The notes beneath the pieces were generated by a model. The model was not told the DNA's origin and searched no databases. It saw nothing but the letters and a program-made list of their open reading frames with translations. DNA of 64,000 nucleotides from Alphaproteobacteria bacterium (GTDB lineage: Bacteria > Pseudomonadota > Alphaproteobacteria > UBA7887): contig CBDCGL010000011.1 of NCBI GenBank assembly GCA_965216755.1, positions 2,272,001 to 2,336,000 of the forward strand, given 5' to 3'. Below are positions 34,354 to 37,820 of this stretch, piece by piece (position 1 is the first letter of the stretch; each line of letters opens with the position of its first letter). Both the position numbers and the translations under genes were made by a program.

Positions 34354-35154
34354 CTAGGTTGTTTCGGACCGTTGTTCGAGAGCTTGTTGAACCAAGCGCG
34401 CTTGGTCGTCGACTGAAATGTCCGCCACCGACGGCACCTCGAACTTGCGATCTTCGTAGACGACCGCGTCCGGATTGCCGGCCTGCCAAACTTGGGCGGC
34501 GTCATCGCGTTCCTTGAGCAGCCATTCGATTTGCGGTCGGAACAGCCGCAGCATGGCCGTAACCCAGCGATTCGCCGGCCAAGACGGCACCGCATGGTCG
34601 ATGACGAATAGATCGATCAAGCGGCAGACATCGTCAGCCTTGTACCAAGATTCGCCGGTGACCCAGCGATTGGTCGTGAATATCCGAAACGGGTAGCCCG
34701 CGTTGTCCATCGAAATGCCGATGATATGGCTGAGCGCGTCCTTTCCAATCGGCCGTTTGACCGACTCGGGCATGTCAACCGGGCACATCGTCTCCGGCAT
34801 GCCCTTGACCCGCACAAATGTATGGAAATGGCCGTGCTCCGTGCCCCGCAATCCCTGTTTGTGCGCATGATAGTAATATTGGGCATGCGTATCGCGGTCG
34901 TACACGTCACCTTTGGGATAGTGATTCCATTCGGTAAACGTGCCCTGCCCACGCAGCAATTCGCCAACCACATTGGACCCGCCCTTGGTCAGCACACGGT
35001 AGCATTCGGCTATTTCGGCCGCGGCCGCGGCCATCTCTTCGAGCCGCTCGGTCGGTAGAGCCGTGGGCGGCAACGGCCCGCTCGCTGCCTCGCGGCGAAC
35101 CAGTGATTTCTGCAATGCTTCAACATCCAAATTCACCATGACCGCAATCTCCAC
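34354..35154 (-). CDS. Conserved hypothetical His-motif protein (DUF6969-like, recalled from memory)
   Basis: WNHYP..DVYD...QYYYHAH...EHGHFHTF...HIIGISMD..GYP..FTTNRWVTGE. Confidence 0.7.
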   Translation of the reverse strand: MEIAVMVNLDVEALQKSLVRREAASGPLPPTALPTERLEEMAAAAAEIAECYRVLTKGGSNVVGELLRGQGTFTEWNHYPKGDVYDRDTHAQYYYHAHKQGLRGTEHGHFHTFVRVKGMPETMCPVDMPESVKRPIGKDALSHIIGISMDNAGYPFRIFTTNRWVTGESWYKADDVCRLIDLFVIDHAVPSWPANRWVTAMLRLFRPQIEWLLKERDDAAQVWQAGNPDAVVYEDRKFEVPSVADISVDDQARLVQQALEQRSETT

Positions 35155-35165
35155 ATTTCAGGCGC

Positions 35166-35330
35166 TAGAGAAGTGTCCGACAATCTTGAACCATTCTGCC
35201 AGAGCGCATTTTCGTCAAGATCAAGTCACTGTCCGGAGGGCGTATCAGAAATACGGCTAAGAACATCGCCGTCGAGATTGTCACAAAATCGCTCCGGCAG
35301 AATGGTTCAATATGGTCGGAAAGTGCTCTA
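35166..35330. mobile_element. 165-bp non-autonomous MITE-like element with about 41-bp imperfect terminal inverted repeats
   Basis: TAGAGAAGTGTCCGACAATCTTGAACCATTCTGCCAGAGCG ... CGCTCCGGCAGAATGGTTCAATATGGTCGGAAAGTGCTCTA; ends TAGAG/CTCTA. Confidence 0.75.
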
Positions 35331-36188
35331 ATTTGTGGGCTCGCGTACCAAACGGAAGCCTATCAAGATGTGCTTGATATCGGCCGGGCGCGAATGCCGC
35401 GCCGCCGGCCGACAAACGCCGCAGCCTCGGTCGTCCCAAGAGCCTCCTTTGACAATGTAGCGGCCATTTTGGCCAGGCGTCACTGTCCACTCGAACACTT
35501 GCCCAGCCATGTCCAGGGCCCCGAACGGGCTTACGCCGCGCGGGAATCGGCCGACGGGCGTGGTCGCGAACGGACCCAAATCATGGCTGTTCAGCCGCAT
35601 CGGGTCGAATTCGTTGCCCCAGGGAAACCACCGACCATCGGCGCCACGTGCGGCTTTTTCCCATTCCAACTCGGTCGGCAGACGCCAGGTCTGAGCCGTC
35701 CGCTCACTCAGCCACCCGGCATAGGCGTGCGCATCGGCGATAGTCACCAACACCACGGGATGGTCATCGCGCCCTGGTGGCGGGCCGCCTTGCCAGCGAT
35801 ATGGTGCTGTCCGTTCATAGGGGTGGATCAGCCGATAAGACGCCCATGTCTCAGGGTCAACATCCGGCTCTTGCCGCCAGTGCCCAAGAACCGCAGCCTC
35901 ATATTGTGCGTTGGTGATCGGCGTTCTGGTAATCCAAAAACCACCTGTTTCATGGATTTCGCGTGGTCGCTCGCGATCGTACCAACCGCGTTCGCGGGTG
36001 CGACTGTGGCCGTATGCCGCCTCGTCCAATTGGTAGGCCGCCTCGCGCTCCGCCGAATCGGAACCGGCGAAAAACGGCCCCGCCGGTACCCAGACGACAT
36101 CGGGAATAACGACATCGTCCGCAACAACGCAGGCGCCCGTGAACGTGGCCCCCAACACCAAAACAGCTCCAGCGATCAAATCGCGCAT
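35328..36188 (-). CDS. Exported FGE-sulfatase-fold protein (SUMF1/EgtB/PvdO/NirV family)
   Basis: VPAGPFFAGS, TPITNAQY, HPVVLV, RLPTELEWEKAARG, DMAGQVFEW, KGGSWDDRGCGVCRPAAR, IGFRLV; hydrophobic N-terminus; start approximate. Confidence 0.9.
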   Translation of the reverse strand: MRDLIAGAVLVLGATFTGACVVADDVVIPDVVWVPAGPFFAGSDSAEREAAYQLDEAAYGHSRTRERGWYDRERPREIHETGGFWITRTPITNAQYEAAVLGHWRQEPDVDPETWASYRLIHPYERTAPYRWQGGPPPGRDDHPVVLVTIADAHAYAGWLSERTAQTWRLPTELEWEKAARGADGRWFPWGNEFDPMRLNSHDLGPFATTPVGRFPRGVSPFGALDMAGQVFEWTVTPGQNGRYIVKGGSWDDRGCGVCRPAARHSRPADIKHILIGFRLVREPTN

Positions 36189-36354
36189 TCGCAAATGTCC
36201 GGAATTGCCTTCCTCACCCGCATTAGATAGCCATTTTGTCATGGGCCATGTGTATAGCTGACGCAATTGTGATAACGATAAATGTTGTTCGTTGTTCGCG
36301 TAACACGTTCAATAAGAAACTGAAAACGACCTATAGACCGAGTGGAGGAAAAGC

Positions 36355-36612
36355 ATGAAACCGATCCTGAAGAGCACCCGCACCCGTCTTCTTTCCAGCA
36401 CCGTCGTGATTGCTGCCGCATTGGCAATGGCGCAGCCGGCCGCTGCCCAATGCAACGCCTGCAATCCGTGCGGTGCCGAAGCCGCGTGTAGTGCCTGCAA
36501 TCCTTGCAATCCCTGCGCCGCAGCCGCGTGCAATCCTTGCAATCCCTGCGCCGCAGCCGCGTGCAATCCTTGCAATCCCTGCAGTGCATGCAATCCTTGC
36601 AGCGCTGAATAA
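36355..36612 (+). CDS. Secreted Cys-rich CNPC-repeat peptide (85 aa)
   Basis: GGAGG SD; Sec-type signal ending PAAA; 54-aa mature part with 15 Cys and 8 NPC units; followed by a terminator. Confidence 0.88.
36496..36582 (+). repeat. 33-bp coding tandem repeat (2 full copies plus 1 partial)
   Basis: TGCAATCCTTGCAATCCCTGCGCCGCAGCCGCG at 36496 and 36529, partial at 36562; encodes [11 protein letters not shown]. Confidence 0.9.
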
Positions 36613-36635
36613 GGATCTGTGATAGGTTCAAGAAC

Positions 36636-36665
36636 TGCCTTGGCCAAGGCCAAGGCATTTTTTTT
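36636..36665 (+). terminator. Intrinsic terminator after the CNPC peptide gene
   Basis: TGCCTTGGCC-AA-GGCCAAGGCA followed by T8. Confidence 0.85.
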
Positions 36666-36728
36666 GTCAGCATTGTTTGGACCCGCCGACAGGCAAACGA
36701 TCATCGTTGGGATTAGGCACCACCAACC

Positions 36729-37229
36729 ATGACCTTGACCGACACCGTACCGCCAAGGCGTTCAGCAATACCCAGTGGTACACTAAGATATTTCTTGGCG
36801 ATAGTTTGGCTATTCGCCTGGACCGTCGGCGTTGCACGTGCCGATGGCGAGGTCGGCTCCGAAATCAGCGCCCCCGATGCGCTTGCCTTGGTGGAAAGAA
36901 ACGATCTTACGATCATCGACGTCCGCCGGCCTTCGGAGTGGCGCGACACGGGCCTGCCAGTCGGCGCCGTCGGCATCAGCATCCACAATATGATCTACCT
37001 GGAACGCAGTGCTTTCATCGACGATGTCCGCGACGCGGTCGGCGGCCAGACCAACCGACCCATTGCTGTGATTTGTGCGGCCGGGGTGCGTTCGGCGCGT
37101 GCCCAAGAGCTGTTGAGAGAAGCCGGATTTACTGCCGTCGTCGACATCAACGAAGGCATGCTCGGCAATGGTCATGCCCCGGGTTGGATGGCCCGGGCCC
37201 TGCCGACGGTCCCTTGCCCGAATTGCTAA
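36729..37229 (+). CDS. Exported rhodanese-like protein
   Basis: Signal-like ...VGVARA|DG, IIDVRRPSEW, active-site loop ICAAGVRS, EGM..W...LP, C-terminal CPNC. Confidence 0.88.
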   Translation: MTLTDTVPPRRSAIPSGTLRYFLAIVWLFAWTVGVARADGEVGSEISAPDALALVERNDLTIIDVRRPSEWRDTGLPVGAVGISIHNMIYLERSAFIDDVRDAVGGQTNRPIAVICAAGVRSARAQELLREAGFTAVVDINEGMLGNGHAPGWMARALPTVPCPNC

Positions 37230-37433
37230 CGCGTGGCGCAGATCAACCCTGAGTCGGTACTTCCCATTCGGCCCGGGACAGGATCATGGGTCAATACATA
37301 ACCGTTTCGGTGCCAAAAGGTTGATCGCCATCGCGCGGATCACTAGATTACGGGGCGTCATCGCCCATCCACCCCGCGGCCGCGAGGCGGGCGCACGGCT
37401 CAAAGAAGAATGGTACCGGAGAGGACTAAACTC

Positions 37434-37820
37434 ATGAAATACCGCGACCTGCTTGTCGCTGCCGGTTTTGGCGTGATCGCCGCAGCGGTTTCGATGCCGG
37501 CCTTGGCGCAAGGTGATGCCGAAGCCGGTAAGAAAGTCTTCAATAAATGCAAGGCCTGCCACACCCTTGAGGCAGACGGCAAGAACAAAGTTGGCCCCAA
37601 TCTGCATGGCATTTTTGGTCGCACGGCGGGGGCCGCCGAAGGCTTTAAATACTCTGCTGCAATGCAGGAATCGGGTATTGAGTGGAACGACGAAACAATC
37701 GCTGGGTATTTGGCAAATCCGAAGGAATACTTGCCGAAGAACAAGATGGCCTTCCCAGGCTTGAAAAAAGAAGACGATCTCGCAAACGTGATTGCGTATT
37801 TGAAAGAGAACACCCAGTAA
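37434..37820 (+). CDS. Cytochrome c2/c550
   Basis: Signal peptide, [44 protein letters not shown]. Confidence 0.93.

Follow-up and report, generated by a model that had tools for sequence, protein, structure and literature searches.

An Asn-Pro-Cys-repeat peptide gene beside DUF6969 in an alphaproteobacterial genome: one instance of a widespread and probably thiol-based cell-envelope module

We report on a compact gene group in a 64,000-nucleotide stretch of DNA (hereafter the window) from Alphaproteobacteria bacterium (GTDB lineage Bacteria; Pseudomonadota; Alphaproteobacteria; UBA7887; assembly GCA_965216755.1, contig CBDCGL010000011.1, positions 2,272,001 to 2,336,000), which encodes a DUF6969 protein, a protein of the FGE-sulfatase fold (FGE-like protein), a small peptide made of Asn-Pro-Cys (NPC) and Cys-Asn-Pro-Cys (CNPC) repeats, a rhodanese and a c-type cytochrome (Table 1). 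These five genes had been proposed in an earlier sequence-only reading of the window, and open reading frames (ORFs) in the window bear out all of them. Comparison with other genomes places the locus in a widespread envelope module that has not been described before, with DUF6969 and a poly-Cys protein as the core pair, while the FGE-like protein with its CxxC pair, the rhodanese and the c-type cytochrome are recurrent periplasmic accessories. The group around the peptide gene is probably a new thiol-based cell-envelope system, and because core and accessories stand together in 3.5 kb the window locus is a good test case.

The FGE-like gene lies immediately upstream of the DUF6969 gene on the same strand, and the peptide gene is read in the opposite direction and followed directly on its 3' side by the rhodanese gene. 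By eye, export signals can be read on four of the five products, all but DUF6969, on which no signal peptide is visible. The N-terminus of the peptide has a positive charge, a hydrophobic core and an A-x-A-like site, i.e. a predicted Sec-type signal, with a conserved TRxRLL..T motif in the signal region; after the predicted cleavage site there are 15 Cys residues, mostly as C-N-P-C. The peptide has no match to any Pfam or NCBIfam model (E ≤ 0.01). The 33-bp unit in its gene is present in 2.6 copies at 100% identity, which indicates that the number of repeats has changed recently, and the terminator that had been assigned to the gene alone is found as a hairpin followed by a run of T residues.

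The distribution of the repeats was studied in a class sample of 401 genomes (307 genera) and an order sample of 23 genomes, using two strict DNA patterns, CNPCNPC and NPCAAKNPC. The CNPCNPC pattern occurs in 10 of the 23 genomes of the order and in 30 of the 401 of the class (26 of the 307 genera), and genomes positive for the other pattern span 24 genera; the reversed-pattern controls gave 0 matches in the sampled genomes, showing that the CNPC repeat is more than chance. DUF6969 is present in 90 of the 401 genomes, a count that takes in one unpublished genome (G261), which enters no other result. Specifically, it is carried by all 30 CNPCNPC-positive genomes and by all 30 NPCAAKNPC-positive genomes (15 of the latter being new), giving 45/45 for both patterns taken together vs 45/356 for the rest. 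Moreover, 23 of the 30 CNPCNPC-positive genomes, as judged by pattern coordinates, have an NPC gene at most 10 kb from DUF6969, and the number rises to 26 of the 30 when NPC ORFs from the DUF6969-centred loci (see below) are added. The pairing of DUF6969 with poly-Cys proteins is thus conserved both at the genome level and by adjacency, and the conserved co-occurrence looked for with re-called small ORFs in the neighbourhoods, on which the sequence-only reading depended, is clearly present.

Peptide orthologues are present in nine other genomes of the order, and tblastn of the proteins encoded in the window against these nine loci detected DUF6969 in 8, the FGE-like gene in 6, cytochrome c and CoxG in all 9, DctM in 6 and the rhodanese in 1. 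The gene order in this lineage is dctQM, DUF6969, FGE, then in divergent orientation the peptide, (rhodanese), cytochrome c and coxG-S-L-M. Around 20 NPC genes from other families outside the order (±8 kb), DUF6969 was found in 12 loci, a P460 domain in 7, the FGE-like gene in 4 and cytochrome c in 4, with rhodanese and Cox in 0/20. A third set consists of 41 DUF6969-centred loci (±8 kb), i.e. the window and 40 chosen from the 90 positives by score and contig extent. The neighbours here are cytochrome c (17 loci), an NPC-repeat ORF (16), a P460 domain (15; one or both of the last two in 21/41), DUF2336 (13), the FGE-like gene (12, one only 29% identical), a histidine kinase (10), rhodanese (6), DctM (6), a YeeE-type sulfur transporter (PF04143; 5) and CoxG (2), and the rhodanese homologues in the five loci beyond the window are 44-46% identical. 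Families differ from one another in the order and orientation of these genes, so that mere synteny is a poor explanation. The set of partners suggested from the sequence alone holds as a co-occurring group, but its invariant member is DUF6969 and not the FGE-fold enzyme, given the 12, 6 and 17 of 41 loci with FGE-like gene, rhodanese and cytochrome c.

Table 1. Features of the locus and its flanks, with related genes elsewhere (prefixes C, L and G denote our contig, locus and genome handles)
Feature	Position	Strand	Remarks
TRAP transporter membrane parts DctQ + DctM	32257-34309	+	PF04290, PF06808
DUF6969 protein	34354-35154	-	266 aa; PF22308 E 1.2e-83
FGE-sulfatase-fold protein, exported	35328-36266	-	312 aa; PF03781 E 1.2e-43
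NPC/CNPC-repeat peptide precursor	36355-36612	+	85 aa; ORF with Shine-Dalgarno GGAGGA
Tandem DNA repeat within peptide gene	36496-36582	+	33-bp unit, 2.6 copies, 100% identical
Terminator-like hairpin after peptide gene	36636-36665	+	9-bp stem then T8
Rhodanese, exported, single-domain	36729-37229	+	PF00581 E 1.1e-10; loop C-A-A-G-V-R-S
Class I c-type cytochrome (c2/c550-like), signal peptide	37410-37820	+	PF00034 E 5.4e-13; CKACH
coxG, coxS, coxL, coxM	37926-42291		Flank of module; CoxG begins 37926
CoxL	39024-41480		AYRGAGR
81-aa NPC paralogue, same genome	C11:4779662-4779907; L093:8663-8908(-)		Same signal region, ADAENPC repeats
389-aa NPC-P460 protein, same genome	C11:507304-508474; L034:6305-7474(-)		~24 NPC units in two blocks, C-terminal P460
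Second DUF6969 copy, same genome	L003:8263-9180(+); C11:142409-143008		57% identical
NPC-P460 protein with C-x-[VI]-P-R-[LI] (example)	L045:1234-2403(+)
(C-G-A)n / KKACGACG P460-domain proteins	L133:9842-11146(+); L135:5566-6666(-)		Adjoin FGE-like gene and DUF6969
FGE-like orthologue with in-frame TAG	G327:C72:9393-10196
FGE-like orthologue with in-frame TGA	G329:C8:31150-31926

The repeats extend well beyond small peptides: the protein collection contains, at E ≤ 0.001, 401 small homologues and 954 longer ones, some of which are, by source names, from Gammaproteobacteria and Nitrospinota. The translated pattern matches are of two kinds, (i) signal-peptide proteins of 60-150 amino acids consisting nearly entirely of NPC/CNPC units and (ii) proteins of ~350-430 amino acids that have a signal or anchor ("LLSTTV(I/L)P") at the N-terminus, then two NPC blocks, and at the C-terminus a CxxCH-bearing cytochrome P460 domain (PF16694). 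Among the best 120 of the 954 longer homologues the repeats are fused, often at both ends, to P460, SoxA/TsdA-type cytochrome c (PF21342), CCP-like (PF03150), YceI (PF04264) and LysM domains. Since they flank haem domains (P460, SoxA/TsdA-type cytochrome c and CCP-like), the thiols would be placed next to redox centres. That the same repeats serve as N- or C-terminal tails of such proteins does not agree with the proposal that the peptide represents a stand-alone family of precursors of the RiPP type (ribosomally synthesized and post-translationally modified peptides). The broader idea, an uncharacterised RiPP-like or metal/sulfur-buffering module, survives as a conserved, undescribed periplasmic Cys-peptide module; the stand-alone precursor family does not, and neither does the insertion discussed further below. 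Our searches of the full-text literature found nothing on bacterial NPC/CNPC repeat proteins. We know of no described P460 protein with a Cys-repeat extension, and the literature searches were not aimed at this point.

The genome itself has three NPC-repeat genes, encoding the window peptide, an 81-amino-acid paralogue and a 389-amino-acid NPC-P460 protein. The paralogue gene is convergent to an operon for OEP, a protein without assignment and an AcrB-family RND (resistance-nodulation-division) efflux pump, with an IS481-like transposase gene adjoining. For the NPC-P460 protein the Pfam P460 score is barely over the cut-off (27.4 vs 27 bits), and no DUF6969, FGE-like or rhodanese gene was found at a distance of up to 6 kb. 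Two P460 proteins encoded near DUF6969 in other genomes carry (CGA)n repeats in place of NPC, which suggests that the common feature is the poly-Cys periodicity and not the NPC unit. A quarter to a third of the residues in the exported repeat proteins can be Cys; proteins of this sort are often missed in annotation and fall outside every family model. In nearly all NPC-P460 proteins a C-x-[VI]-P-R-[LI] motif is situated between the two repeat blocks, in which the Arg is retained at +4, as in the FGE motif, while the Pro is displaced by one position.

The gene previously called DUF6969-like encodes a member of the DUF6969 family proper (PF22308, 280 bits vs a cut-off of 27, with profile positions 2-201 of 201 covered). 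Seven His residues (H78, H96, H98, H107, H109, H111 and H143) and three acidic residues (D83, D86 and E106) are invariant in 18 DUF6969 sequences and are located on neighbouring strands in the AlphaFold (AF2) model (pLDDT, the predicted local distance difference test score, 85). With VIA-align wide the best Z was 7.0, for ~60 residues and helical hairpins only, and an ESM Atlas search gave no usable match; judged by the model, the fold may be new. The family has 1,266 representative clusters (50% identity) at E ≤ 0.001 in a profile search of 1.84 billion proteins, and is not mentioned in the full-text literature that we searched. In a tree of 42 DUF6969 proteins, built by a quick method, 6 of the 39 inner branches are well supported. 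Poly-Cys adjacency is scattered over this weakly resolved tree (12 changes; 70 of 500 shuffles as low), and with adjacency unclustered a separate "peptide-linked" subfamily of DUF6969 could not be defined. The genome has a second DUF6969 copy, which groups with the window copy in the tree and adjoins genes for Amidohydro_2, a CoA-transferase III and a sugar-type ABC transporter, with no Cys-repeat gene near. A DUF2336 gene (PF10098) is situated ~1-1.8 kb from DUF6969 in the 13 loci referred to above; of DUF2336 the genome has five paralogues, none in the window.

The FGE-like protein scores 150.1 bits against PF03781 (cut-off 23.3; positions 3-255 of 255) and reaches no NCBIfam cut-off. Its true start is likely the ATG at 36188 (M27, "MRDLIAGAV..."), ahead of the hydrophobic signal. 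Across 19 orthologues C282-x-x-C285, H87, H148, H169, H291 and H299 are invariant, and the motif KGGSWDD-x-G-C-G-[VI]-C-R is kept in 19/19. The protein shares the FGE-sulfatase fold with FGE/SUMF1 and their fold relatives (SUMF2, EgtB, OvoA/OvsA, PvdO, PorK/GldK, CalU17 and ToxD). Among solved structures it is closest to ToxD (E 1.8e-25) and CalU17, while FGE itself aligns only in the central part (E 1e-6 to 1e-7) and the PDB alignments to FGE end before the region of the Cys pair. This pair comes just after GGSW, which we take to be the region of the Cu(I)-binding cysteines of FGE; unlike FGE, for which we assume the spacing C-x4-C, the FGE-like protein has C-x2-C and is exported. The conservation of the pair suggests a redox or copper centre. 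In the same genome (99.8% complete) no sulfatase scores above the Pfam cut-off, the one PF00884 match having 24.5 bits vs 25, and hence a classical FGE role, with type I sulfatases bearing C-x-P-x-R as clients, is unlikely; the CNPC units are without the Arg. Our search of the literature on NirV yielded nothing that bears on the FGE-like subfamily.

FGE-like orthologues (E ≤ 1e-50) are present in 32 of the 401 genomes, and 31 of the 32 also have DUF6969. In 24 of the 32 the FGE-like gene adjoins DUF6969, usually lying directly upstream on the same strand, and in two more it is adjacent to an NPC gene. Two orthologues have one in-frame stop each (Table 1) and may be decaying copies or reflect sequencing errors. 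With respect to the remaining accessories, the rhodanese scores 42.2 bits against PF00581 (cut-off 22.2), and the active-site Cys loop in its translation, together with this score, points to a competent rhodanese. The cytochrome scores 50.5 bits against PF00034 (cut-off 21.3) and its CKACH conforms to the CxxCH haem motif, as in class I cytochromes c; it also matches NF043008 (E 6.5e-33), under the cut-off of that model.

How might these components act together? We suggest that a cytoplasmic DUF6969 protein with its His cluster and a Sec-exported Cys-repeat protein, here the 85-residue CNPC peptide, form the core, in which the repeat protein would be a flexible multi-thiol scaffold with the cysteines as working groups. 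Most likely these would carry or buffer reactive sulfur in the form of persulfide or thiosulfonate adducts. Loading or unloading of the peptide cysteines would fall to the rhodanese and their oxidation to the CxxC FGE-fold protein, with electrons passed to c-type haem, either on the neighbouring cytochrome c or, elsewhere, on the fused P460 or SoxA/TsdA-like domains. DUF6969 may work in the cytoplasm, where it would either mature or hold the precursor while this is still unfolded and not yet exported, or act on a pathway product. We favour a periplasmic multi-thiol sulfur or redox carrier, with a probability of roughly 0.4, because of the rhodanese and YeeE-type neighbours and the fusions to SoxA/TsdA-type domains; thiosulfate and Cys-bound sulfur are what SoxA and TsdA work on.

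The closest parallels for a sulfur or redox carrier are the SoxYZ/SoxAX and TsdA systems, where periplasmic Cys thiols are likewise found near c-type haem and the haem domains are of the type fused to NPC repeats in relatives; rhodanese and YeeE-type transporters as neighbours also recall periplasmic thiosulfate oxidation. Unlike SoxYZ, the peptide is a low-complexity repeat without SoxY or SoxZ family match (there is no Pfam match of any kind; Sox genes beside the locus or elsewhere in the genome were not searched for), and it has many repeat cysteines in contrast to the single swinging-arm Cys of the Sox carrier. Cytochrome P460 and cytochrome c'-beta offer another likeness, as P460 is the commonest folded domain joined to the repeats and one such protein is encoded in the same genome, but the window peptide has no P460 domain.

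Several observations weigh against the sulfur or redox carrier. P460, the commonest fused domain, is known for hydroxylamine and NO chemistry and not for sulfur, and the sulfur-specific neighbours are in a minority of the DUF6969-centred loci (rhodanese 6/41, YeeE 5/41), which were hand-picked and are not a random draw. Among the annotated window ORFs no further recognised sulfur gene adjoins the cluster, the nearest candidate being a TauD-family dioxygenase gene ~13 kb upstream. The DUF6969 model has no PDB match (Foldseek, E ≤ 0.001) and the role given to DUF6969 is purely conjectural. The median share of NPC units preceded by Cys is 0.47 in 19 FGE-like-positive genomes vs 0.32 in 18 negative ones, with overlapping ranges and with loci partly chosen by the CNPCNPC pattern. 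Finally, related genomes are not independent, and the co-occurrence counts are descriptive and overstate the statistical weight.

The strongest competitor, which we consider possible although somewhat doubtful, is a soft-metal buffer in which the exported poly-Cys proteins would serve as periplasmic chelators of Cu(I) or further thiophilic metals, in the manner of metallothioneins or bufferins. The CxxC FGE-fold protein would itself bind copper, and DUF6969 would be their partner in the cytoplasm, with a part in metal handling or protection. The dense CxxC and Cys repeats and the invariant Cys pair of the FGE-like subfamily are in keeping with this, as are the RND efflux operon next to the second small NPC peptide gene and the name of one database homologue of the small peptide ("YHS domain-containing protein, partial"). 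On the other hand, the repeats are fused to redox haem domains and not to metal-trafficking domains, and the rhodanese and YeeE neighbours favour sulfur. Moreover, no metal-resistance or copper family is among the gene clusters recurring in at least 4 of the 41 DUF6969 loci, where several clusters have no Pfam match and not every cluster represented in the window was annotated anew. Metallothioneins and copper storage proteins (Csp) resemble the peptide in very high Cys content and CxxC spacing, but differ from the present proteins, which are exported, have the Asn-Pro-Cys periodicity, are obligately paired with DUF6969 and are fused to haem domains; no Pfam or NCBIfam relation was found.

Precedents for such a copper role exist. 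FGE proper is reported to bind Cu(I) by a Cys pair (PMC5324649, PMC6676471), and the bufferins/oxazolins (BufA, BufB, BufC) are MNIO-modified, Sec-exported copper-binding RiPPs and as such examples of copper-buffering Cys proteins outside the cytoplasm (PMC11626156). Bufferins have in common with our system a small Cys-bearing precursor with a Sec signal (a predicted one in our peptide), an adjoining gene for a cytoplasmic metalloprotein and a periplasmic product (PMC11626156). They are set apart by the peptide, which has no DUF2282, BUF_6/12Cys or oxazolin family match (no Pfam or NCBIfam hit at E ≤ 0.01), by low-complexity repeats that here vary in number and are also fused to haem domains, and by the partner, here DUF6969 with its unrecognised fold. 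The absence of MNIO/DUF692 enzymes, already proposed from the sequence, is confirmed by 0 matches to PF05114 in the genome, with the Caulobacter vibrioides control detected, and by none among the scanned window ORFs. DUF2063 (BufC) is on none of the annotated neighbours, in annotations that included no search aimed at it.

A RiPP-like maturation of a new kind is rather unlikely. DUF6969 would here be a cytoplasmic metalloenzyme that modifies Cys or Asn-Pro-Cys units before Sec export, after which the periplasmic FGE-fold enzyme would oxidise the C-x-P cysteines, e.g. to formylglycine. The co-occurrence is strictly one-way (every NPC-positive genome has DUF6969), the seven invariant His with the acidic residues would fit a (multi)metal site, the unusually conserved signal region (TRxRLL..T) could double as a recognition leader, and bufferin precursors are existing Sec-signal RiPPs (PMC11626156). 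In addition, CNPC contains the C-x-P part of the FGE motif and the genome has no sulfatase client above the cut-off; yet the CNPC units have no Arg as in C-x-P-x-R, the FGE-like gene is limited to 31 of the 90 DUF6969-positive genomes and the CNPC share does not clearly follow its presence. Repeats attached at the two ends of large folded haem proteins, and fast changes in copy number, are unlike defined RiPP cores, and no enzymatic fold is recognised for DUF6969. We likewise think it unlikely, in a bolder form of this argument, that DUF6969 represents a novel type of (multi)metal enzyme in the cytoplasm, acting post-translationally on the cysteines of Sec-exported poly-Cys precursors independently of MNIO, with the CxxC FGE-fold protein adding a second, oxygen- or cytochrome-linked modification, so that a new class of ribosomal thiol-derived envelope products would be present in about one-fifth of the sampled class genomes.

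That there is no dedicated system at all is very improbable. On this view the NPC repeats would link or tether periplasmic proteins as low-complexity segments stapled by disulfides, the small peptide would be a paralogue that has been shortened, and synteny by descent would account for the neighbourhood. In its favour, the peptide and the NPC-P460 proteins have similar signal regions ("LLSTTV(I/L)P"), repeat number changes fast, adjacency to Cox and dctQM is largely lineage synteny and poly-Cys adjacency is scattered on the DUF6969 tree as given above. Against it, the co-occurrence holds over 26 and 24 genera with varying order and orientation, for which synteny alone is insufficient, the small peptides keep intact ORFs (with 401 small homologues, and with an own Shine-Dalgarno sequence and terminator in the window), and the FGE-like subfamily is nearly confined to DUF6969 genomes.

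The meaning of the module differs with its chemistry. If it carries sulfur, as we favour, it adds a periplasmic sulfur-handling route not known before; if it binds metals, it would be a second, MNIO-independent envelope metal buffer; and if DUF6969 is a maturase, it would represent an enzyme class not known before, whose fold is apparently new as well.

With respect to the flanks, the locus had been regarded as an insertion between dctQM and the cox cluster, an idea at odds with the gene order being conserved across the order and with dctM recurring beside DUF6969 in other families (three of the DctM orthologues in the six class loci are 66-77% identical and come from three other families). 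DctQ/DctM is hence a recurrent neighbour whose membership of the module is possible but unproven; no DctP gene is found beside DctQ/DctM, and a major facilitator superfamily gene is located upstream on the opposite strand. A functional link to Cox was considered and rejected, since CoxG is present in 9/9 order loci but in 0/20 NPC-centred and 1/40 DUF6969-centred loci outside the order, i.e. the adjacency is lineage synteny. CoxL has AYRGAGR in place of the Cys-containing active-site loop, presumably a mark of form II (putative) CO dehydrogenase-like enzymes, and coxM, coxE and xdhC-type genes continue after CoxL to ~45.6 kb.

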